Notes under the pieces: generated by a model | Database searches by the model: none | What the model was told of the DNA's origin: nothing | What the model saw: the letters and a program-made list of their open reading frames with translations, nothing else | Source: a virus | Taxonomy: Duplodnaviria; Heunggongvirae; Uroviricota; Caudoviricetes | DNA: 8,931 nt | Strand: one strand, 5' to 3' | IMG/VR virus record: IMGVR_UViG_2695420699_000009 | Location: 1 to 8,931 of that record | Translations under genes and position numbers: made by a program | Part shown: positions 1 to 8,931 of the stretch, in pieces | How the letters are laid out: every line of letters starts with the position of its first letter | How positions within the stretch are numbered: the stretch's first letter is position 1

Positions 1-127
1 AGAAGCCACTGGAGCACCTCAAAAACACCATCATACACTAAATCAGTAAGTTGGCAGCATCACCGATAGCCTCAAGCACCCGCAGCAATTCTACTTAACT
101 CTCGCTTTACCGCAAACCGTTTTTACC

Positions 128-149
128 CGATATGGGAATTCCCATATCG
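128..149. repeat. Perfect 22-bp palindrome CGATATGGGAATTCCCATATCG (11-bp arms, centred on GAATTC)
   Basis: Read directly: the reverse complement of the first 11 nt equals the last 11 nt. Sits 8 nt downstream of the 158..262 small ORF stop. No U-tract follows on either strand, so it is not a canonical intrinsic terminator. Confidence 0.6.
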
Positions 150-157
150 TAATGAAT

Positions 158-262
158 TCAGTTCCCTAGTCGATCCATCAAAAACACAACCAGGCAGTAA
201 ACGCCCACAACAGCAACAACAGCCAGCGCACCTTCCATTGCCAGTGATATATCATCCGACAT
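158..262 (-). CDS. Candidate small hydrophobic peptide, 34 aa (MSDDISLAMEGALAVVAVVGVYCLVVFLMDRLGN)
   Basis: Below the ORF-track length cutoff; found by hand. ATG at 262 preceded by AAGGAGG with ~4-nt spacing; TGA stop at 158-160; one transmembrane-like hydrophobic stretch. No homology evidence. Confidence 0.3.
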   Translation of the reverse strand: MSDDISLAMEGALAVVAVVGVYCLVVFLMDRLGN

Positions 263-297
263 ATTCCCTCCTTTGGTGTTAATCCCGGCGAACGTTT

Positions 298-381
298 TTA
301 CCCCCACCGACAAATAACATATACTAAAAAAGCGATAGCCATAGCAACGCCTGTAATTGCAAATGCTTCAGGCCAGTTCAT
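298..381 (-). CDS. Candidate small hydrophobic peptide, 27 aa (MNWPEAFAITGVAMAIAFLVYVICRWG)
   Basis: ATG at 381..379 overlaps the TGA stop (380..378) of the upstream 300-aa gene in an ATGA arrangement, suggesting translational coupling; the upstream codons GGAGGTG act as SD; TAA stop at 298-300. Hydrophobic core. Confidence 0.3.
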   Translation of the reverse strand: MNWPEAFAITGVAMAIAFLVYVICRWG

Positions 382-1280
382 TGGCGCACCTCCTGCGGCG
401 GTTCTGGTAGAGGCATCCAGTGTGATGGTATCCACGACGCACCAGGTATTATCCACCCATCATTAGCGTCAGGATGCCCCGGGATGTAAGTCGCCCATTT
501 CATTCGCCAGTCACCTTTCCTGCCAAAATCCCTGGCAACAAGAACGGCTGTTTTGGTATCCGGCATTCGCTCACTACAGCTTATCCAACTATCCGGAGTT
601 ACCGGATAGTTGCCCGATAGTGCATTCTGCTCCAGTGATGCTTTTACAAACCACGCTGCCTGAACTATAACGCCATGAATCCAGCGCAAATCAGCATCGC
701 GATCTTTCTTTTTCATCTTTTCGCCACTTAAGGCCTTGCTTATGTGGCTGCGTACCAGGTCTTCATGTAATTCCTTCGCCTCCTCAATGGTGAAACCACC
801 AGGCAGAAGAGCCGGAGTTACCGGAGAGCTGGTTGACGCTTCCGGGATTTCCCGAAAATTATTGGTTGACGAATTCTTGCTTTCCCGAAAGTTTCCGGAC
901 TGAAGCATGGCGGTGCGGCAGGCGTTCCATATTTCGGCAGCAATATCGCGCTCGCTATCGGTTAATTTGTACGTGGAAACATAGCCAGAGAGCATTTCTA
1001 CGTTTTCCGGAGTTGCTTCTTCCGGCACTACCGGCGCTGGCGGGGCGATGCGTCCAAGCAACTTATTTACCTCTTTCGCCATCGCGTCATATTTATCTAA
1101 ATGGCGATTAGCTTCTAAGCAGACTCGGCGCATCTGATCTGAGTTAACTCGTTTAACTGGATCTGCTTCCAGCGATGCCAGCGCAATCCGTGCCAGTTCC
1201 ATTTGTTCACCACGGGTAAGCCCGTTTTCAAGCGGATTTTTAATGAACAATTCAATACGTTCTTTGGTAATAGTGGTCAT
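378..1280 (-). CDS. Phage protein, 300 aa, with a Trp/Pro-rich C-terminal region resembling the DUF551 family
   Basis: Long ORF; ATG at 1280 preceded by AAGGAG at 6-nt spacing. C-terminus (WISCSERMPD...WIIPGASWIPSHWMPLPEPP) recalled as DUF551-like; not searched. Confidence 0.7.
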   Translation of the reverse strand: MTTITKERIELFIKNPLENGLTRGEQMELARIALASLEADPVKRVNSDQMRRVCLEANRHLDKYDAMAKEVNKLLGRIAPPAPVVPEEATPENVEMLSGYVSTYKLTDSERDIAAEIWNACRTAMLQSGNFRESKNSSTNNFREIPEASTSSPVTPALLPGGFTIEEAKELHEDLVRSHISKALSGEKMKKKDRDADLRWIHGVIVQAAWFVKASLEQNALSGNYPVTPDSWISCSERMPDTKTAVLVARDFGRKGDWRMKWATYIPGHPDANDGWIIPGASWIPSHWMPLPEPPQEVRQ

Positions 1281-1290
1281 GTGTTACTCC

Positions 1291-1554
1291 TTAACCCGCA
1301 GTGCTTTCAACTGATGAGGGGAACAAAATCTTTTCATCAAACCCTGCATTCATATCATGAACAGCAACACACCAATCCATCGACGAACGATTATCAAGAG
1401 CCTCCATGATTTCATCCATGCGGCGTAGGTCATACAGGTAAATGCTTTTATCGCCAATGGTGTAAAAGCCAATTTTTTTCGGTGATGGACAGCGATCAAG
1501 AACTTCCTGTAATTCGTTCAACCATGCCCGTTCTTTTTTTGTCAAAGTTGCCAT
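1291..1554 (-). CDS. Hypothetical phage protein, 87 aa (MATLTKKERAWLNELQEVL...)
   Basis: ATG at 1554 preceded by AAGGAAA; the ORF-track N-terminal extension to 1644 lacks an SD. TAA stop at 1291-1293, 10 nt before the next gene start. Confidence 0.6.
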   Translation of the reverse strand: MATLTKKERAWLNELQEVLDRCPSPKKIGFYTIGDKSIYLYDLRRMDEIMEALDNRSSMDWCVAVHDMNAGFDEKILFPSSVESTAG

Positions 1555-1555
1555 A

Positions 1556-1693
1556 TCAGTTTTCCTTATACGGATTAATTTTATTGTGCAGTGTGTTGAA
1601 TGACGCCCATACCACGTCGTTATACAATTCAATAACTGGCTCAATTATTTTTCCGATTATCCAGACTAGGATTAACGGGGATATCGGTATCAT
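1556..1693 (-). CDS. Possible small membrane protein, 45 aa (MIPISPLILVWIIGKIIEPVIELYNDVVWASFNTLHNKINPYKEN)
   Basis: Hand-found ORF in the 250-bp gap between two genes. Strongly hydrophobic N-terminus; TGA stop lies immediately upstream of the 1554 ATG and its last codons form that gene's SD. No SD of its own (in-frame GTG/TTG alternatives just upstream). Weak call. Confidence 0.2.
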   Translation of the reverse strand: MIPISPLILVWIIGKIIEPVIELYNDVVWASFNTLHNKINPYKEN

Positions 1694-1779
1694 CAACACG
1701 ATAAACAGAATGAGAAACAGAAATTCTGTTGTTCTACTCTTTCGCGGATATTTTTTCTAAATAATGTGACCATTCATTA

Positions 1780-1795
1780 CCGCCCTTTCGGGCGG
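1780..1795 (-). terminator. GC-rich hairpin CCGCCC-TTTC-GGGCGG downstream of the 70-aa gene
   Basis: Perfect 6-bp GC stem with a 4-nt loop, about 10 nt after the TAA stop at 1806-1808. No U-run follows on the minus-strand RNA, so at most a weak terminator or stabilising hairpin. Confidence 0.3.
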
Positions 1796-1805
1796 CCTCC
1801 TGACA

Positions 1806-2018
1806 TTAATCGTTGTAATAACTCATAGCTTCATTTGCAGCATCAACTGGATCAACCTCCCTCCAGCAATAATTTGAATCGGCTCCTTCAGGCGTCCACG
1901 GTTCTAATTCATTTTTTGCCGCATTCTCATCGCCAGTAATTTTAAAAATCTGCTCAGAGAATTTTCTTGCCCACTCGTTATATTTTTCCGCATTAATGGC
2001 TTTCTGTGTATTTAACAT
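1806..2018 (-). CDS. Hypothetical small acidic phage protein, 70 aa
   Basis: ATG at 2018 preceded by GGAGGT at ~7-nt spacing; sits in the co-directional operon. Confidence 0.6.
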   Translation of the reverse strand: MLNTQKAINAEKYNEWARKFSEQIFKITGDENAAKNELEPWTPEGADSNYCWREVDPVDAANEAMSYYND

Positions 2019-2068
2019 AAATATACCTCCAGTTAAGGATTAGATTTTATTTACAGCTCTAAATTTAT

Positions 2069-2425
2069 TTATTCAGTTCTGGATTTTGTCGCCCTGCGTA
2101 TCCGCGCTTTCGCGTTACGCTCAATCTGAATTAACTTTTCTATATTTTTCCGCCTTTCCTGTTCCTCCTGGCGCAATAGCCTTACATCATCTGCCAGTCT
2201 GGTTTCTCTTTTCGCCACAGAGAGCATCCAGTCAAACGGCTCCACAACTGCACCGCAGATTTTACAGCGGACCTGACGCTCTTTTTCGTCAACCCGAACA
2301 GAGGCGTGATGGCAATATGGTCTTTCCGATGGCTCATAAAGAAAATTAACCTGATTACGAGGGTCATCCTCTTTTACCGGAAATAAAACGATATTGCTTA
2401 ACTCATCCTCTGGTTTTATTTCCAT
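2069..2425 (-). CDS. Phage protein with a putative zinc-finger (CHH...CKIC) and a basic coiled C-terminal tail, 118 aa
   Basis: ATG at 2425 preceded by AAAGGAGAGGAGC. An alternative GTG start at 2482 (GTGA overlap with the upstream stop, also with an AGGAG) would add 19 aa. Confidence 0.6.
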   Translation of the reverse strand: MEIKPEDELSNIVLFPVKEDDPRNQVNFLYEPSERPYCHHASVRVDEKERQVRCKICGAVVEPFDWMLSVAKRETRLADDVRLLRQEEQERRKNIEKLIQIERNAKARIRRATKSRTE

Positions 2426-2482
2426 GCTCCTCTCCTTTGATGCGAATGCCAGCGGTAATTGAAGCCTGATAGCTAATTTCAC

Positions 2483-2878
2483 TCACAGTACCGTCTCCTG
2501 AAAATTACCCTGATAGAAAGCCAGTACACGCTGCATAGCTTCACTCTTCCGGCACTCGCCACAGATTATGTTCTGTTGTCTGTCGTAGCGGCGTATTTCT
2601 CCGTCTGGTAACTTTCGAATCAATGTCTGGTCGGTTGCTTTCTCCGCTGCCTTACGCCATACGCGATACACCTGTTCTGATGTAAAAACACCGTATTTAC
2701 CGGGCATGTATAAATCGCCACAAGCCAGTACATCCACAAGGCAACGTCTGACTGAATGCCAGCCTGCTCCCGTCGCTCTCTCCAGTTGTGATATCGTCAT
2801 GCGTTCATTTTTGCGTACCAGCCCGATAATTCGGGCCTTCAGTTCTTCACGCTGTTCGTGTGTAAAAGGTTTCGCCAT
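2483..2878 (-). CDS. Hypothetical phage protein, 131 aa, possible winged-helix N-terminus
   Basis: ATG at 2878 preceded by GGAGG at 6-nt spacing; TGA stop at 2483-2485; tight spacing with neighbours. Confidence 0.7.
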   Translation of the reverse strand: MAKPFTHEQREELKARIIGLVRKNERMTISQLERATGAGWHSVRRCLVDVLACGDLYMPGKYGVFTSEQVYRVWRKAAEKATDQTLIRKLPDGEIRRYDRQQNIICGECRKSEAMQRVLAFYQGNFQETVL

Positions 2879-2893
2879 AAGCGCCTCCGGCTA

Positions 2894-3664
2894 TCACTTT
2901 TCCGATACAACACGGCGGGAAGAATCAGTAATCTGTCGAACAATATCCCGGTGCTTGTTCAGCTCCCGCAGCGCGGCGCAGACTCGCTCCCACTTCTGAA
3001 CATCACTTTTCGCCCTGCGCAGCGCCAGGTTTGCCCTGCGCAGGGACGGAAAAATCAGCTCATCTGCTTGCGTTTCGGTAAACGATGGCAACGGCTGCAC
3101 AATGTCCGCCACAGTTTCTGTTTTAATTTCTTCCTGTGTTGCGGCTTCCCGGACTGGTAACGAAGCACCTGCTGGCTGAGGAAAGGCCTTACCATCACTT
3201 TCCGTTACCAGCGCGGCTTTCGGCTCTGCTGGTAAATTATCGCCCGGCATGCAGTAACGAAATTTACCGTTCTGATTAACGCGTGCCAGCCGCCCCGTTG
3301 CGGTTACCACCGCCAGCGTGGAAGCAACCTTGCGAGTACTGACACCGAACTTACCCGCCAGTTCCTCACACGTTTTAGCCCCATCCTGACCGATAAACTC
3401 AATCATCATGTCTGCGGTAACTTTTTGTTCGACCTCCCCGGTCAGCATATCCTGTGCTTCAGATTTTACTGGCCGCTCTTCGGTTACCCGGGATTCACCT
3501 TCGCCAGCCAGAAACCAGGTGTGACCAGTTTTATCAACGACGCCATTTCTTTTGAGTTCCCACAGCTCGTTGACAGCCTCTTCACGACTGATTCCAAGGC
3601 GAGCTGCCACCACATGTGAAGAGGCTTTTTTCAGTGCTTTCAGTGCGTCAGATACGGTTTCCAT
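2894..3664 (-). CDS. Phage protein, 256 aa, with two tandem winged-helix-like repeats (DUF1627-like by recollection)
   Basis: ATG at 3664 preceded by GGAGG at 8-nt spacing. Two similar segments (VAARLGISREEAVNELWELKRNG and ELAGKFGVSTRKVASTLAVVTATG). Lies directly downstream of the helicase-loader gene, as is usual in lambdoid prophages. Confidence 0.7.
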   Translation of the reverse strand: METVSDALKALKKASSHVVAARLGISREEAVNELWELKRNGVVDKTGHTWFLAGEGESRVTEERPVKSEAQDMLTGEVEQKVTADMMIEFIGQDGAKTCEELAGKFGVSTRKVASTLAVVTATGRLARVNQNGKFRYCMPGDNLPAEPKAALVTESDGKAFPQPAGASLPVREAATQEEIKTETVADIVQPLPSFTETQADELIFPSLRRANLALRRAKSDVQKWERVCAALRELNKHRDIVRQITDSSRRVVSEK

Positions 3665-3685
3665 TAAAATTTCCTCCGGACAAAA

Positions 3686-4432
3686 TTACTTCACAACCCT
3701 CATATTGCTGACATTTGGACGCCAGCTATCCCAGTTAAACGTCACCCATCGACCACCGTTCATGGTCATGCGATCCATAATCCGCTCGCCGAGCAATGTT
3801 TTCATGGCCTCATAGTTCAGGTTTGTCAGCATCCCCACGCTGCGCATCGACGCTGTCCGGCGATCAACAATCTGGTGCAGTACCACCTGCTCGTTTTTCG
3901 TCTCGCGCTGAATGCCAATTTCATCAAGAACCAGCAGATCCACTTCGCACAGTTCCCGCAAAAATTTTTCGCCTGACTGCCCATCGTCATAGCTGGCGTG
4001 CAGGGCACTCATAACATCAGCCACGGTAACCACAATCACTGTCTGACCGTCTTTCAGCAGGCGATTCCCGATAGCTGCCGCTAAGTGGTTCTTCCCGGTA
4101 CCAGGTTTTCCGCTGAACGCAAAATTTGTACACCCGGTCATCAGTTCATCAGCGATGGATTTCGCCTGACTCAACGCGTATCGCTGCCCTTCGTTCTGCA
4201 CCTGGTAATTCGAAAACGAGCATTTGCTGTGCAGAGGCTGGATGCCCGAACGATTCAGGATTTTTTCCACCCGCAACTGGTGATTCTGGCGGTTAATCTC
4301 CTCGCTGCGTTTTCGTCCTTCAGCAAGTTGCCATTCCCGCCACTCCTCCACCGTCCGGTACGGTGGAACCGACGCCTGTGGTGCAAGTCTGCGAATACGT
4401 TCAAGAACCCCGGCTGCCGCAATGTTTTTCAT
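3686..4432 (-). CDS. DnaC/IstB-family AAA+ helicase loader (lambda P functional analogue; Rac YdaV-like), 248 aa
   Basis: Walker A (GKPGTGKNHLAAAIG) and Walker B (DLLVLDEIG) read in the translation. ATG at 4432 lies 6 nt after the upstream gene stop, with a GGGGGTGA SD. Confidence 0.9.
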   Translation of the reverse strand: MKNIAAAGVLERIRRLAPQASVPPYRTVEEWREWQLAEGRKRSEEINRQNHQLRVEKILNRSGIQPLHSKCSFSNYQVQNEGQRYALSQAKSIADELMTGCTNFAFSGKPGTGKNHLAAAIGNRLLKDGQTVIVVTVADVMSALHASYDDGQSGEKFLRELCEVDLLVLDEIGIQRETKNEQVVLHQIVDRRTASMRSVGMLTNLNYEAMKTLLGERIMDRMTMNGGRWVTFNWDSWRPNVSNMRVVK

Positions 4433-4438
4433 GCCACA

Positions 4439-5521
4439 TCACCCCCTGAATCCCGGCGGTATTTCAGTGTCCGGTTCAGAAATGTGATTCACGCAACGCT
4501 GGTTGTTCGTGCCGCTTACCGGGAGCAACCAGGGGTTTTCAAAATTCCGGTCCGGCCCAAAAAACGTCTTCGCTCGCTGAACAAATTCCGTTCCCGCTTT
4601 CCCGGTCGCCGCCAGGTATCTCGCGTAACGCCTCACACCATCCAGCATGGTCTCTGGTGGCACCCCCTCGCGCAATCTGGCCTTCCAGGCACTGAATGCG
4701 GATTTCTTCGGGTTTGCTCCGGCACGCAACGGGAACTCCCGCCAGACCTGTTCGAACACATCCGGATAATCCACTCGTCCCACAGACTGCCCGGTGTTTT
4801 CCGGGACTACCCGATCGGCTTCCCGCTGAATGGCGGAATCGGCTTCGGGCTGCTGCAGTTGGTGTGATTGCTCCGGCCTTGCGGTCATCACCTGCTGCAC
4901 AGCGCCCGAATCGGCTTTCAGCGCATACGCTGAATCGGCTTCCGGTGTCGTGCCTGCTGGCTGACCAGGATTGACGGTCTGAACATCCCCTGCCTGGTTC
5001 GTGGCGTTTTTTACGCCATGGACCATAGTGTTTTGATCTTCTTGATCTGTATCTTTATCTGTATCTTTATCTGTATCTTTATCTGTCGTGACTCGTCGTG
5101 ACATGTGCGTGACATTTCGTGACGCGCCGTGACAATCGCCATTTTGTTCCCGCTTTCTTTCCCTCTCTCGCTGCGCCCTCTTGCGCTCTGCAGGAGATTT
5201 TGCGGTTTGCGAAATATTGCCGTTGTCCTCTTTAAGCACCTGGCGTTTTTCCCATCCAGTGATTAAATCACCATCAAGTACCCGCCCCTGCATCGTCTGC
5301 AAAATTGAATCAATTACCTCTTCTGTCACGTCGAGCGCACTTGCCAAATCTTCTGTCGTGACATCAATGTGACCTCGCGTGACATTTCGTGACGCGCTCA
5401 CCAGGAGGTGGATATACACTGCCATCACTGTTGCAATTGGCTGCCCTGACACCCTGGCAATTGTTCGCCACTTAGGGTCATTTGGCATGTCATGCCATAA
5501 TCTGAGCCAGGCGTTAGCCAT
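4439..5521 (-). CDS. Replication initiator / replisome organiser (lambda O-like; Rac YdaU-like), ~360 aa
   Basis: Sits immediately upstream of the DnaC-like gene. Start taken as the ATG at 5521 (SD GAGGTGA); the ORF track begins at a GTG at 5527. The coding sequence contains the iteron-like repeats and a (TDKD)n linker. Confidence 0.8.
   Translation of the reverse strand: MANAWLRLWHDMPNDPKWRTIARVSGQPIATVMAVYIHLLVSASRNVTRGHIDVTTEDLASALDVTEEVIDSILQTMQGRVLDGDLITGWEKRQVLKEDNGNISQTAKSPAERKRAQRERERKREQNGDCHGASRNVTHMSRRVTTDKDTDKDTDKDTDQEDQNTMVHGVKNATNQAGDVQTVNPGQPAGTTPEADSAYALKADSGAVQQVMTARPEQSHQLQQPEADSAIQREADRVVPENTGQSVGRVDYPDVFEQVWREFPLRAGANPKKSAFSAWKARLREGVPPETMLDGVRRYARYLAATGKAGTEFVQRAKTFFGPDRNFENPWLLPVSGTNNQRCVNHISEPDTEIPPGFRG
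5045..5080. repeat. Tandem 12-bp repeat (ATCTGTATCTTT x3, plus a partial copy) encoding a TDKDTDKDTDKD linker
   Basis: Read directly at 5045-5086; corresponds to ...TTDKDTDKDTDKDTDQ... in the minus-strand translation. Confidence 0.9.
5086..5397. other. Putative phage origin of replication: two clusters of phased GTGAC iteron-like repeats inside the initiator gene
   Basis: Cluster 1 (5086-5133) has five GTGAC copies at ~10-13 bp spacing; cluster 2 (5356-5393) has four. An exact 20-bp repeat CGTGACATTTCGTGACGCGC occurs at 5108-5127 and 5378-5397. Lambda ori lies inside O in the same way. Confidence 0.55.
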
Positions 5522-5592
5522 ACTCACCTCTTCTGATACCGAATCTTTTTACTCACGAGTTGCCGGAAGCGATTCGATATGGCTATTATCAC

Positions 5593-6018
5593 TCAATGCA
5601 CTGCCACAGCATTTCCTGCCGGGCCACCACGGTTCATCTGATTGAAACCGGCGATTGCCACCGCGACAAAATCATCAGCGTCTCTCACCAGTCGCTCCCG
5701 CGTCTCCACCAGCTCCCGAAAATAAGCTGAACTGTGGCTGCGCATTCTGGCCACCAGCAAAGGTGGCATTGCCTTTTCGATCGCTGGTAACAACGCCAGA
5801 ATTTTTTCAACTGCATCAGGGGTGTCTTTCTCTATCCAGCGGAAAATTTTCTGGGTATTGCGAGCCAGGGCTTCCGGATGGCTGTCGTCGTACAGTTCAG
5901 GAAACGTCATACCCAACTCAAAATAAGCCTGGGTTATTCCAGCTGCCGGAACTTTTTCGCCATCAGGACGCGCCCAGGCATTCATCGCCATGCGGATGTG
6001 TTCATGCTTGATTTTCAT
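5593..6018 (-). CDS. CII-like regulator (Rac YdaT-like), 141 aa
   Basis: Immediately follows the Cro-like gene on the same strand; ATG at 6018 preceded by AGGAGC at 7-nt spacing and overlapping the upstream gene's 3' end by 17 nt. Family assignment by position and recollection. Confidence 0.7.
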   Translation of the reverse strand: MKIKHEHIRMAMNAWARPDGEKVPAAGITQAYFELGMTFPELYDDSHPEALARNTQKIFRWIEKDTPDAVEKILALLPAIEKAMPPLLVARMRSHSSAYFRELVETRERLVRDADDFVAVAIAGFNQMNRGGPAGNAVAVH

Positions 6019-6283
6019 GAATCAAGCTCCTAGAAAGTGGTTGTGTTAACGTTTTGGTATCTTCCAGCTCGGGCCAAATATTCATCCAATCAAAAGGCCT
6101 TAGTTGCTGACGTGTAACTTCACCATTACTGGCTCGCTCAATAAGGACACATAACGATGCCCCTAACACTTGACCTTTACTCAATGCCTTTCTTAGATAA
6201 CCGATGCTGGTACCACACTCGCATGCAAACATACGCTGTTCATCTGACGAAAGAGAATTGAGAAATATTCTTAATTCTTCCAT
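6002..6283 (-). CDS. Cro-like HTH regulator (Rac YdaS-like), 93 aa
   Basis: First gene of the minus-strand operon, divergent from the repressor; ATG at 6283 preceded by AAGGAG at 5-nt spacing; HTH-like segment around TSIGYLRKALSKGQ. Confidence 0.75.
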   Translation of the reverse strand: MEELRIFLNSLSSDEQRMFACECGTSIGYLRKALSKGQVLGASLCVLIERASNGEVTRQQLRPFDWMNIWPELEDTKTLTQPLSRSLIHENQA

Positions 6284-6308
6284 AGCTACTCCTTAGTAAA
6301 CACAGCAA

Positions 6309-6390
6309 AGAATACCCATAGGTAAACAAAAGTCAATACCCATAGGTTGTTTACCTTGCGGTAATCGCATCTATTATTTACCTATGGATA
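6309..6390. promoter_or_regulatory. OR-like divergent promoter region with three copies of a 12-bp palindromic operator (consensus TACCyATrGGTA)
   Basis: Operators at 6313-6324 (TACCCATAGGTA), 6337-6348 (TACCCATAGGTT) and 6379-6390 (TACCTATGGATA, overlapping the repressor ATG). Candidate minus-strand promoter: -35 TTGACT (6336..6331), -10 TATTCT (6314..6309). Candidate plus-strand promoter: -10 TATTAT (6372-6377), placing the start at or near the ATG. Confidence 0.6.
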
Positions 6391-6803
6391 AATATGAATT
6401 TAGACGACAGCAACTCATCAAAATTCGTGATGAGAAATGCGATGGTAAAGCGGTTAACGTGGCCAGAAAGATCGGGCGCGAGCCTTCTTATGTATCAAGA
6501 ATGTTGTACCCAGAGGGGAAAAAGGGAAAAAAACGGATCGCTGATGATATGGTGGAGATTATCGAAGAGTCCTTTGGGTTACCCCGGGGATGGATGGATG
6601 GTATCGTTTCATCATCAACGAACACAGCCTCCAGTTATGAAACAAGGGTTCTAACGCCACGACAACGTATTTTTTTAGATCTCTTAGACGAACTGCCAGA
6701 AAGTGAAGCGGATAAATTATTAAAAACTCTTGAAGAGAAAAAACAGTATTACAATATGATCTACGAAGAAATCCGTAAAAAGAAAGCACAAAACGCATCA
6801 TAG
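6384..6803 (+). CDS. CI-type prophage repressor, 139 aa, XRE-like HTH with a DicA/RacR-like C-terminal region
   Basis: Divergent from the Cro-like gene. HTH-like segment AVNVARKIGREPSYVSRML. The C-terminal part (LTPRQRIFLDLLDELPESEADKLL...) resembles the DicA C-terminus as I recall it. No SD upstream, consistent with a leaderless transcript. Confidence 0.8.
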   Translation: MDKYEFRRQQLIKIRDEKCDGKAVNVARKIGREPSYVSRMLYPEGKKGKKRIADDMVEIIEESFGLPRGWMDGIVSSSTNTASSYETRVLTPRQRIFLDLLDELPESEADKLLKTLEEKKQYYNMIYEEIRKKKAQNAS

Positions 6804-6845
6804 CTCACCAAACAACTAGTCACCAGTTAAGACACCGCAAAAAGT

Positions 6846-6886
6846 TACCCATGGGTATTTACTTTTTAAATACCTATGGGTATCCT
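6846..6886. promoter_or_regulatory. OL-like operator pair and candidate rightward early promoter
   Basis: Same motif as in OR: TACCCATGGGTA (6846-6857, perfect palindrome) and TACCTATGGGTA (6871-6882), 25 bp centre to centre. Candidate -35 TTTACT (6858-6863) and -10 TATCCT (6881-6886) with a 17-bp spacer, firing on the plus strand. Confidence 0.5.
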
Positions 6887-7207
6887 TCTTTTCATGCCAA
6901 CCCACCCCGCCCCACAGAATGCAGGGCAATACTTTGAGTTACCAGGCAGTGGTCAGGGGTTAAGTAGCCAGCCCGAGGCGTAAGAACATGACGGCAGGGT
7001 TCAACTTTAATAACTATGCAGCAGGTTTTTGTTCCGCTACCCCGGCGTTAAGGGGAAACAGAGGATTTCTCAGTGGGCGAAGTCAAACATCAGAATGGAA
7101 GGCATCCAGGGATCAGCAAAGAAACAGCGATGGCGCTTTATATTGATATCAGCGCCATTGCCGGACAGGTAAGAATTATCAGAGCGGTAACTAAGCGGTA
7201 TGCGCCT

Positions 7208-7408
7208 TTACTTCAGAAAGTCTCTGGTGAGTGCACCGAAGATATTGTCAACGATTTCGTCATCAAACTGCGAGGACTCATCTTCAGTTACAAGGTGACC
7301 ACAATTTTTGCAGATGGCTCCCGCGAAACTGTCAGAGCCATGCGGTTTAAAGGATGTGTCAAAGACTTCGCCGCCACATTCTGGGCAAGAAAACTTGATT
7401 GTATTCAT
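7208..7408 (-). CDS. Small Cys4 zinc-ribbon protein with an acidic C-terminal tail, 66 aa
   Basis: Two CxxCG knuckles (CPECGG and CKNCGH) 20 residues apart. ATG at 7408 preceded by GAGAGGAAA at ~9-nt spacing; the ORF-track start at 7414 is a TTG. Oriented opposite to the surrounding plus-strand early operon. A plus-strand ORF (7073-7429) fully overlaps it; the zinc-ribbon motif decided the call. Confidence 0.55.
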   Translation of the reverse strand: MNTIKFSCPECGGEVFDTSFKPHGSDSFAGAICKNCGHLVTEDESSQFDDEIVDNIFGALTRDFLK

Positions 7409-7500
7409 AACCAATTTCCTCTCGAGTAACAGCCGCCTCAGAGGATACCACCTCGCCTGACGTGGTTAAAAGCAGGCAACGCTAACCACAAGGAGCCGAC

Positions 7501-7719
7501 ATGCAGAAACGAGAACCCGTCATCATCGCGCCAGACTATACCGATGATGAACTTTATGAGTGGATGCACCAGAAAATTAAGGCAGCGCAGGACCTGAAAT
7601 GGGCCAATGAAGCCAGGGCTAAGCAAGCTGAAAATCTGTCCGCTCTGGAGCAGGATATCACCAATCTGGAAAAAGCAGCGGCATTAAGCATTGCCAGAAT
7701 GATTACATACCCGCGTTAA
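7501..7719 (+). CDS. Hypothetical early-operon protein, 72 aa (same position and size as Qin YdfC, but not verified)
   Basis: ATG at 7501 preceded by AAGGAGCC at 5-6 nt spacing; TAA stop at 7717-7719; same strand as the dicF-dicB module. Confidence 0.6.
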   Translation: MQKREPVIIAPDYTDDELYEWMHQKIKAAQDLKWANEARAKQAENLSALEQDITNLEKAAALSIARMITYPR

Positions 7720-8059
7720 TAGCTAACCAACGAAGCTAAGGTTGGTAATTAAGGAGTTCTCCACGGGTGAGGTGGAGTGCGTGCGCCGGACACGGGTGAG
7801 CATCCGGCACTGACAGTTTACTGAAAGGATATTTCCCTGAAAAGTCAGGGCATAACGCGAAAGCGCACGGCGAGGTAGCTGGTTCATAGATAGCCTGTCG
7901 TTAAATTTTCGTCGACCGTGCGCTTCCGGTTGTGGCACTCCGCGAAATGGCGCGGCGGTAAGTATGGCGGGGTTATTCCTTCCCCGTTGAGGACACCGGG
8001 TTGTCAGGTTGACCATACGCTTAAGTGACAACCCCGCTGCAACGCCCTCTGTTATCAAT

Positions 8060-8117
8060 TTTCTGGTGACGTTTGGCGGTATCAGTTTTACTCCGTGGCT
8101 GCTCTGCCGCCCTTTTT
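8060..8117 (+). ncRNA. dicF: DicF-like small RNA (ftsZ-targeting sRNA of Qin-type prophages)
   Basis: TTTCTGGTGACGTTTGGCGGTATCAGTTTTACTCCGTGGCTGCTCTGCCGCCCTTTTT matches my recollection of E. coli DicF almost base for base. It ends in a GC-rich stem plus T-run and lies ~170 nt upstream of the dicB-like gene, as in the Qin dicB operon. Ends are approximate, since DicF is made by processing. Confidence 0.7.
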
Positions 8118-8286
8118 AAAGTGAATTTTGTGATGCGGTGAATGCGGCTAAGCGCACGCGGAACAGTTAAAACCAAAAACAGTGTTATGGGTGGATTCTC
8201 TGTATCCGGCGTTAATTGTTAACTGGTTAACGTCACCTGGAGGCACCAGGCACTGCATCACAAAATTCATTGTTGAGGACGCGATA

Positions 8287-8475
8287 ATGGAAAAGTTATC
8301 ACGTAATGCCAGCACGTCTGAACTTCGTTTCGAAATTGGCGTTATCACTGGAGACAAAACATTTATTGAAGACGCCATTAAGCAGAGAAAACTCGAGCAG
8401 GACCTGTTAAATGAAGTATGCATTCCTTCAATGCTGGCTCGTCTGGACCTGCTGCAAAAAGGATATAAACAATGA
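8287..8475 (+). CDS. dicB: DicB-like cell-division inhibitor, 62 aa
   Basis: Same length as E. coli DicB and shares recalled motifs (FEIGV, EDAI, KRK, LLN, SMLARL, C-terminal KG..Q). ATG at 8287 preceded by GAGGA at ~8-nt spacing; the ORF-track extension to 8182 has no support. Confidence 0.8.
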   Translation: MEKLSRNASTSELRFEIGVITGDKTFIEDAIKQRKLEQDLLNEVCIPSMLARLDLLQKGYKQ

Positions 8476-8663
8476 ATACAACATTTGCACTCGTTCTGAC
8501 AGTTTATCTTGTTTCCGGCGAATCTCTTGAGCTGGTGACTGGCTTATACGGTTCAATGAAAGAATGCATGGCTGCAGCAGCAGAACAAAAAATTCCCGGT
8601 AACTGTTATCCGGTAGATAAAACTACCCACACTAATAATAACGAAATACCGGCAGGACTTTAA
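8472..8663 (+). CDS. Small protein with a hydrophobic N-terminus, 63 aa, translationally coupled to dicB (YdfD-like by position and size)
   Basis: ATG at 8472-8474 overlaps the dicB-like TGA stop in an ATGA arrangement. N-terminal hydrophobic segment MNTTFALVLTVYLVSG. Matches the position and length of Qin YdfD; sequence identity not verified. Confidence 0.55.
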   Translation: MNTTFALVLTVYLVSGESLELVTGLYGSMKECMAAAAEQKIPGNCYPVDKTTHTNNNEIPAGL

Positions 8664-8756
8664 AACAGCACCGTAATTAATATCCGGTTTCATTTTTATA
8701 TGCCAGCAATGGCAGGGATTTGTTCACCCTTAAATCTGTAATGAGGTTAAAACAAA

Positions 8757-8931
8757 ATGAGTAAAGTCTTTATTTGCGCCGCCATTCCGGACGAACAGGC
8801 AATAAAAGAAGAGGGCGCAGTTGCTGTAGCCACTGCCATTGAAGCTGGCGACGAACGCCGTGCTCGAGCAAAATTTCACTGGCAATTCCTGGAACATTAT
8901 CCGGCTGCTCAGGACTGCGCTTATAAATTTA
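8757..8931 (+). CDS. Hypothetical protein, 5' part only (runs off the window; YdfE-like by position)
   Basis: ATG at 8757 with GAGG ~10 nt upstream; open to the end of the window (MSKVFICAAIPDEQAIKEEGAVAVATAIEAGDERRARAKFHWQFLEHYPAAQDCAYKF...). Confidence 0.55.
   Translation, partial: MSKVFICAAIPDEQAIKEEGAVAVATAIEAGDERRARAKFHWQFLEHYPAAQDCAYKF

Follow-up and report, generated by a model that had tools for sequence, protein, structure and literature searches.

Zinc-ribbon gene and operon-strand reading frame

We analysed 8,931 nucleotides of viral DNA (positions 1 to 8,931 of IMG/VR record IMGVR_UViG_2695420699_000009, Caudoviricetes; hereafter the window), which correspond to the region for immunity and replication in a Qin/Sp12-like lambdoid E. 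coli prophage. The subject is a segment around positions 7208–7408, where a small zinc-ribbon gene lies on the minus strand within the leader of a repressor-controlled dicB-type operon that runs on the plus strand, and where an open reading frame (ORF) on the operon strand covers the whole of the gene (Table 1). The zinc-ribbon protein (MNTIKFSCPECGGEVFDTSFKPHGSDSFAGAICKNCGHLVTEDESSQFDDEIVDNIFGALTRDFLK) carries two knuckles, C8xxC11G and C33xxC36G (residues 8–12 and 33–37), and has an acidic C-terminal third, with 12 acidic residues against 5 lysines or arginines. A first-pass annotation of the same DNA had already described a minus-strand protein of 66 amino acids marked by a pair of CxxCG knuckles and an acidic tail, placed between left-operator-like (OL-like) sites and the first plus-strand early gene, and had noted that the plus frame at 7073–7429 stays open for 118 amino acids. 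We confirmed the protein, its placement (OL at 6846 and 6871, ydfC from 7501 to 7719) and the open plus frame. It had favoured the minus strand on the ground that the knuckles are a duplicated DNA segment, but no repeat was found there; the two segments share 10 of 15 nucleotides, and 8 of these are forced by the C..CG codons. The reason given was weak because the duplication was not confirmed, although the choice of strand itself was right.

The zinc-ribbon gene is not new but an already catalogued member of a named family. The profile search proposed in the first-pass annotation matched the 66-residue protein to NCBIfam NF047912, "ECs_2282 family putative zinc-binding protein", with 57.4 bits against a cutoff of 37 and over profile positions 1–56 of 60, and RefSeq annotates WP_024182289.1 at the same place and on the same strand. 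The family namesake, ECs_2282 in the Sakai prophage Sp12, is likewise annotated by RefSeq on the zinc-ribbon strand, and the window protein shares the family length, the four cysteines and the Sakai-type arrangement. Of 4358 genomes with a match, 818 (complete E. coli genomes) carried at least 80% of a 961-bp query region that holds the gene. An exhaustive profile search recovered 82 distant relatives, nearly all of 60–75 amino acids and of the same architecture, and the family had 257 matches in viral contigs; members named by NCBI come from Pectobacterium, Brenneria, Photorhabdus and Serratia. A scan of the GTDB species representatives gave only two spurious matches, which probably reflects the absence of this prophage from the genomes chosen. 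In the ECs_2282 subfamily (E. coli, Citrobacter and Klebsiella) the C-terminal helix is acidic, but in most distant relatives it is basic, a difference suggesting that the partner has changed or that mimicry is involved.

In addition to the pair of CxxC motifs there were weak Zn_ribbon matches in Pfam, and the profile had no significant match among solved structures, the best being the zinc ribbon of TFIIE-alpha (E 0.26). AlphaFold models built from alignments of 7 and 37 sequences reached a predicted local distance difference test score (pLDDT) of only 56–57, a confidence too low for a fold comparison to be meaningful. Literature searches with the name ECs2282 and with peptide fragments returned no matches.

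The zinc-ribbon ORF is under purifying selection. The ratio of nonsynonymous to synonymous polymorphism (pN/pS) in its frame was 0.12–0.25 overall and 0.12–0.23 among intermediate E. coli-type alleles, and in comparison with homologues of Citrobacter, Klebsiella and Enterobacter (59–70% identity) the corresponding ratio of substitution rates (dN/dS) was about 0.2, with codon position 3 being the most variable. Among close alleles the 30 polymorphisms in the gene comprised 16 synonymous, 12 nonsynonymous and 2 stop changes, that is 53% synonymous in comparison to the 21% expected. C8, C11, C33 and C36 were the sole invariant columns among 37 diverged relatives (27–97% identity), so that the loss of cysteine pairs in homologues, named in the first-pass annotation as evidence that would count against the gene, was not seen. 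This invariance is not a by-product of plus-frame coding, because the cysteine codons demand GCA or ACA on the opposite strand. There is very little doubt that the minus-strand ORF is a genuine gene. Additionally, synonymous-site variation was found to fall to about one third of the gene average at zinc-ribbon codons 31–44 (window 7280–7320), which read CKNCGH.VTEDE and lie opposite LIFSY.VTT in the plus frame.

The plus-strand ORF, whose register is codon-aligned antisense to the zinc-ribbon frame, has an annotation record of its own. It matched phrog_21318 with an E value of 3e-66 and phrog_29546 weakly, whereas the operon-strand ORFs of distant relatives matched phrog_29546 with E values down to 2e-61. 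The 118-residue ORF is annotated in the GenBank records of the phages Evi and PPompW, and metagenome gene callers concur. The same DNA is thus annotated on the minus strand by NCBIfam and RefSeq and on the plus strand by PHROGs and the GenBank phage records, neither noting the other; the NF047912 model is silent on the overlapping ORF, and the two PHROG families were built from the opposite strand. In the first-pass annotation the two strands had been treated as alternatives. The minus-strand gene proved genuine, but the plus-strand ORF did not turn out to be the loser, as it is open, has a Shine–Dalgarno sequence (SD) and a start codon, and is annotated in GenBank phages and two PHROG families. 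Probably both frames matter.

Judged by its pattern of conservation, the operon-strand ORF is likely to be maintained by selection. It was open in all seven close or intermediate lineages, with a length of 93–134 amino acids in six of them and 104 amino acids in the approximately 50% identical P0013 lineage. In the distant subfamilies 32 of the 38 distinct genes had no internal plus-frame stop and the remaining six were cut only near the C terminus, with open stretches of 96–160 amino acids, and none of the alleles sampled at 91 loci contained a plus-frame stop. Ordinary genes have 0.023–0.031 stops per codon in this antisense frame, which gives a probability of 0.03–0.25 per lineage that the overlap alone is open. 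The ORF also remains open for 24–60 codons outside the zinc-ribbon ORF, where zinc-ribbon coding imposes nothing. Among 38 distinct serine and leucine codon states in the alleles, only 1 was TCA, TTA or CTA where approximately 6–9 were expected, the single case being zinc-ribbon codon 2, at the extreme end of the plus-strand ORF.

The boundaries of the operon-strand ORF are conserved as well. A start codon with an SD core 5–10 nt upstream, situated 24–37 codons before the overlap, was found in 18 of 21 lineages in comparison to 8.3% of background ATG triplets, and in all subfamilies the ORF terminates at, or a few codons beyond, the histidine antisense to the zinc-ribbon ATG. Its N-terminal segment outside the overlap is stop-free in the plus-ORF frame only, with position 3 being the most variable and a pN/pS of 0.45 in the close group and 0.60 in the distant group. 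Opposite zinc-ribbon codons 16–25, the linker between the knuckles, conservation of the operon frame (0.71–0.76) exceeded that of the zinc-ribbon frame (0.49–0.61) in two independent subfamilies, whereas outside these codons the zinc-ribbon frame was the better conserved one. Substitutions in the distant subfamily were distributed over the codon positions almost symmetrically (1611/700/1869), whereas control genes showed a position 3 to position 1 ratio of 2–7. A reciprocal search with the alignment of the operon-strand subfamily recovered only contigs that also carry an intact zinc-ribbon ORF. Both ORFs are intact across the diverged lineages, one of the features expected of an antisense overlapping gene pair.

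Candidate expression signals and distribution of the cassette

Homology between diverged loci spans from approximately 65 nt 5' of the zinc-ribbon ATG to approximately 85 nt beyond its stop codon, and candidate expression signals were found at both ends. The −35 element of the putative zinc-ribbon promoter matches the consensus at 4 of 6 positions; a TGGTATCYT block is kept in most subfamilies, and T-A-T..T of the −10 element is invariant. In the diverged loci the SD sequence AGGA is invariant 8 nt 5' of the zinc-ribbon ATG. Just 5' of this SD, other subfamilies have a stem with covarying arms (CTTGG/CCAAG, CTCTGG/CCAGAG and GCTGG/CCAGC) around the conserved loop AGTTCTCACACAA, seen for example at approximately 5955–5990 of locus L004 and approximately 3955–3990 of locus L110. 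The leader stem in the window differs from this version and would sequester the SD, and its 5' arm is overlapped by the predicted −10 element. No Rfam family fits the conserved 5' stem-loop.

Downstream of the gene, the hairpin and T-tract at 7112–7162 are probably the intrinsic terminator of the zinc-ribbon gene, as suggested by the pairing pattern across lineages. In ten lineages 84% of the cells of the hairpin were paired, in comparison to 24–64% in slid controls, and the covariation was exceeded in only 3 of 500 shuffles; the distant subfamilies have a different GC-rich stem at the same place. Sites that combine a hairpin with a T-tract occurred in 14 of 20 lineages on the zinc-ribbon strand but in only 3 of 20 on the opposite one, and shuffled sequences gave them in 30% of cases. 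The pairing of the hairpin by itself had no strand preference (92 versus 91 pairs).

The zinc-ribbon gene and the long ORF form a mobile pair that moves as a cassette. On the early-left side, just past the repressor, the cassette is present in the window, in Sakai and in Citrobacter and Enterobacter prophages; the Sakai order (CI, small genes, ECs_2282 on the minus strand, ydfC, dicB) is the same as in the window. In Klebsiella variicola and Citrobacter amalonaticus its place is on the early-right side, with cro on one flank and the replication genes on the other, and in two loci of distant subfamilies (L110, 3564–4950, and L115, 3558–4264) it lies in a late baseplate operon, adjoining a wedge subunit of phrog_120. 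In all early-left (pL-side), early-right (pR-side) and baseplate contexts examined the long ORF runs in line with the operon and the zinc-ribbon gene against it. The cassette accompanies unrelated repressors. Qin has ydfA/ydfB in its place, and in Rac the corresponding antisense position is taken by sieB. The cassette has a GC content of 0.465–0.495, like the neighbouring sequence, and no foreign-DNA composition signature was seen. At some distant loci of the baseplate type the operon strand carries a terminator-like hairpin that flanks it. What lies between the repressor and the cassette varies in its turn: HigB/HigA in one relative, PaaA2-ParE in others, the two small genes ECs_2280/2281 in Sakai (L101 3057–3721, L103 3228–3705 and Sakai L210 9052–9523), and nothing in the window.

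Proposed function and competing explanations

We consider it slightly more probable than even, at roughly 55%, that the locus is a mobile cassette of approximately 400 bp with proteins encoded on both strands, in which lysogens probably express the zinc-ribbon gene and the long ORF is translated along with the rest of the operon. The minus strand would then hold an autonomous small gene consisting of a putative extended −10 promoter, an SD, a zinc ribbon of 66 residues with four cysteines and a C-terminal helix, and a hairpin/T-tract terminator. This gene is nested wholly in an operon-strand ORF of 93–118 amino acids, which in the window is the first ORF after the predicted, repressor-controlled OL/pL-type promoter of ydfC-dicF-dicB. 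In the lysogen, the repressor would silence the operon strand while the zinc-ribbon gene stays active from a promoter of its own, similar to a moron, and the zinc-ribbon protein would probably use the ribbon and the amphipathic helix to bind another protein or a nucleic acid. Upon derepression, transcription from the early promoter would run head-on through the cassette, and the fully complementary RNA should shut off the zinc-ribbon gene. The long ORF would then be translated, and either its product is functional or the ribosomes moving over the antisense insert of approximately 350 nt would guard the genes further along against Rho-dependent polarity. Weak constraint on the amino acids speaks for a role of translation only, and the local motifs speak for an acting product.

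A more far-reaching version is possible but doubtful. The pair would be ancient, nested and family-wide, with both products functional in mutually exclusive states, the zinc-ribbon protein in lysogeny and the long-ORF protein of 95–118 amino acids during lytic transcription; complementary mRNAs and head-on transcription would act as a toggle, and the whole would move between early and late operons as one unit.

Several results weigh against coding on both strands, most of them against the operon-strand ORF. Among the E. coli-type alleles its pN/pS in the overlap was 0.66–1.8, changes concentrated at plus-frame position 1 (e.g. 16/2/4), and the 45 codons outside the overlap had no periodicity; among close alleles its polymorphisms (7 synonymous and 23 nonsynonymous) were at the random expectation. 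An OLGenie-style ratio of nonsynonymous–nonsynonymous to nonsynonymous–synonymous changes (dNN/dNS) for the plus frame fell within the range of 0.5–2.5 that ordinary genes from the same loci gave in calibration, a range so wide that the statistic is powerless on 66 codons. The conservation of the N-terminal motif D-(T/A)-(S/T) may act partly at the RNA level, because the motif coincides with the terminator stem. A profile of the segments outside the overlap alone was not significant (E 0.9–4), although the ORFs of the module still ranked first to third of 2,370 open stretches. The ORF had no similarity to any Pfam family or solved structure, and literature searches gave no transcript, ribosome-profiling or proteomic evidence for either ORF. 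On the minus strand, the zinc-ribbon ORF had a premature stop at 19 of the 91 sampled loci, the commonest broken allele being a change of codon 14 from GAA to TAA at 18 loci (viral contigs L071–L093; window approximately 7367–7369) and the other a stop at codon 44 at a single locus, so the gene is dispensable in at least some prophages. The promoter of the gene scores below the threshold of the consensus scan and for this reason is treated as a candidate only, and on one short contig (L107) a distant zinc-ribbon gene runs in the same direction as the gene beside it.

These points are the basis of the view that only the zinc-ribbon gene codes and that the plus-strand ORF is a passive shadow, picked by gene callers for running with the operon. 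Its openness would come from the few leucine and serine residues of the zinc-ribbon protein together with codon bias, and the conserved flank would be the 3' untranslated region and terminator of the zinc-ribbon gene. A plus-frame pN/pS of about 1 with polymorphism at random expectation among the E. coli-type alleles, an N-terminal motif that overlaps the terminator stem and the lack of known relatives all agree with this, as does a taxonomic range equal to that of the zinc-ribbon family, and by chance alone no other antisense frame is open as often as the codon-aligned one (about 0.2 per 66 codons). We nevertheless consider a mere shadow unlikely. It does not account for openness over at least nine deeply diverged subfamilies, including the codons outside the zinc-ribbon ORF, nor for the SD and ATG whose position is kept in 18 of 21 lineages or for the near absence of antisense-stop serine and leucine states (1 of 38). 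Opposite the zinc-ribbon linker the operon frame is ahead in two subfamilies, and radical changes of the zinc-ribbon protein, such as E to K, occur where the opposite frame keeps phenylalanine. The converse view takes the plus-strand ORF alone as real and dismisses the zinc-ribbon ORF as a spurious antisense frame. It has the GenBank phage records, the metagenome gene callers, the line of the operon and the SD on its side, and is nonetheless very improbable. The zinc-ribbon pN/pS of 0.12–0.25 with changes concentrated at its own third codon position, the four cysteines kept down to 27% identity, the conserved ATG, SD and terminator, and the distant member encoded in line with its neighbour all contradict it.

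Two further explanations concern function. As a sub-case of the cassette with translation of both strands, the plus-strand ORF may serve as an anti-polarity bridge against Rho ahead of ydfC-dicF-dicB (or of the baseplate genes), with the zinc-ribbon protein being the sole functional product. Rho terminates untranslated RNA within operons, and frame, start, SD and stop position of the ORF are kept while the amino-acid constraint is weak (pN/pS 0.45–1); the ends of the ORF fall almost exactly at those of the cassette, just past the zinc-ribbon terminator and at the zinc-ribbon ATG, and the long ORF is in line with the operon in all contexts examined. However, local conservation of the operon frame (RFPDG and (V/I)DFG / LRYRG) exceeds that of the zinc-ribbon frame, which a pure bridge would not need, and a bridge alone is rather improbable. 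Still less favoured is the suggestion of the first-pass annotation that the zinc-ribbon protein, in the slot of rex and sieB, serves in superinfection exclusion or defence or else regulates the lysis-lysogeny switch. The slot was recognised correctly, since position and antisense orientation match those of sieB in Rac, and in an Enterobacter prophage the gene comes immediately after sieB and shares its strand. Toxin-antitoxin modules occupy the neighbouring slot in relatives, the predicted expression layout is of the lysogen type, and there was a weak match to the PADLOC candidate PDC-M14A (E 0.0015). Against it, searches with Pfam, NCBIfam and PADLOC gave no PF14163 SieB, Rex or significant defence match for the protein, and the ORF is broken at 19 of 91 loci. 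A role as switch regulator is unlikely in particular, because unrelated repressors accompany the cassette and because it is also present in the early-right operon and in baseplate operons.

Taken alone, the zinc-ribbon gene is an ordinary catalogued hypothetical gene; the unusual part is that two sets of annotations lie on opposite strands and, as the data suggest, neither is simply wrong. Conserved antiparallel overlapping genes are rare and disputed in bacteria and phages, and most proposed cases are young and narrow. Should the two-strand reading be true, a pair whose constraint is partitioned and which is kept over several genera and down to approximately 30% identity would make a strong test case, and a tractable one, being carried by Sakai Sp12 and the sequenced phage Evi. 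If the ORF is a bridge, a general rule would follow for how antisense inserts sit inside phage operons. Either outcome bears on annotation pipelines, which now force a choice of one strand.

Relation to known systems and setting in the window

The genes nog1, ano and laoB of E. coli O157:H7 have been reported as antiparallel overlapping genes and are described as young and taxonomically narrow. They share with the cassette an ORF antisense to an annotated gene in an enterohaemorrhagic E. coli genome, but differ from it in that the cassette frames persist over several genera and over subfamilies at approximately 30% identity. Morons, such as bor of lambda in the concept of Juhala and Hendrix, are genes with their own promoter and terminator inserted in an operon. 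The cassette resembles them in its autonomous layout of promoter (predicted), gene and terminator, its presence or absence among related prophages, its varied operons and its orientation against them; it is unlike them in its flank-like composition and in the conserved operon-strand ORF that bridges the insert.

With sieB of Rac and lambda the gene shares the slot between the repressor and the kil/dicB-type genes and the orientation against the operon. There is no sequence relation between them: SieB, described as a membrane protein, is far longer (the PF14163 protein of the Enterobacter hormaechei prophage L010 has 166 amino acids), whereas the zinc ribbon is a soluble, acidic protein of 66. 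In L010 the sieB gene (5323–5823) lies just upstream of the zinc-ribbon gene (6100–6300) on the same strand, and the two form one block oriented against the early-left operon. Lar/RalR (TIGR03655/PF14354) are likewise small CxxC...CxxC proteins of Rac-like early regions in prophages, but their spacing and C-terminal helix differ; membership was rejected at 15.9 bits against a cutoff of 39.6, with weak profile matches only (E 0.012). A type I toxin-antitoxin system of the RalR/RalA or Hok/Sok kind was also rejected, as the protein is acidic and hydrophilic without a hydrophobic segment, and the opposite strand holds a conserved ORF with an SD and not a small RNA gene.

Table 1. Features of the window around the zinc-ribbon gene and its overlapping reading frame.
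Feature	Position	Strand	Details	Basis
Zinc-ribbon gene	7208–7408	minus	66 aa; ATG start; stop codon 7208–7210	ORF listing; NF047912; RefSeq CDS
Operon-strand ORF covering the whole zinc-ribbon gene	7073–7429	plus	118 aa from GTG 7073 with SD AGAGGA, or 99 aa from ATG 7130	
Candidate sigma-70 promoter of the zinc-ribbon gene	7442–7469	minus	−35 TTAACC 7469–7464; 16-nt spacer; extended −10 TGgTATCCT 7450–7442	read from sequence
Leader stem of the zinc-ribbon gene	7418–7444	minus	CCTCT...AGAGG with SD GAGAGG (7418–7423), 9 nt 5' of ATG	sequence
Hairpin and T-tract	7112–7162	minus	GGCAATGGCGCT / AGCGCCATCGCT (7126–7162), then GTTTCTTTGCTG; encloses plus-ORF ATG 7130	inverted repeat I2
Replication genes		minus		
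YdaT-like gene	5593–6018	minus		
cro/YdaS-like gene	6002–6283	minus		
DicA-like repressor	6384–6803	plus		
OL-type operators	6846–6857 and 6871–6882		TACCCATGGGTA	palindrome search; inverted repeat I1
Putative early-left (dicBp-like) promoter, overlapping OL	6858–6886	plus	TTTACT 6858–6863; 17-nt spacer; TATCCT 6881–6886	by eye only
ydfC, next operon-strand gene	7501–7719	plus		RefSeq annotation; phrog_1744, E 2e-39
DicF small RNA	8061–8112	plus		Rfam RF00039, 75 bits vs gathering score 48

The components of a Qin/Sp12-like early-left operon of the dicB type, namely repressor and operators, ydfC, DicF and dicB, are all present, dicB being located downstream in a 99% identical chromosomal locus (L001). 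The plus strand is assigned to a dicB-type operon because DicF is encoded on it, and in Qin the dicBp operon is repressed by DicA (PMC10448788). A palindrome search found five copies of the 12-bp palindrome TACCCATRGGTA, three between the repressor gene and cro (6313, 6337 and 6379) and two just past the repressor gene (6846 and 6871), and this distribution gives the layout of a right (OR) and a left (OL) operator region. By its score, the OL operator pair doubles as a terminator-like hairpin for the repressor transcript. Immediately 3' of DicF, a sub-threshold STnc100-like match was detected on the plus strand at 8124–8264 (34.5 bits in comparison to a gathering score of 47). A further small minus-strand hypothetical gene of 54 amino acids, antisense to the operon in the interval between ydfC and dicF, is annotated by RefSeq in L001 (7924–8088, minus strand) and in Sakai as ECs_5735, and corresponds to approximately 7723–7887 in the window.

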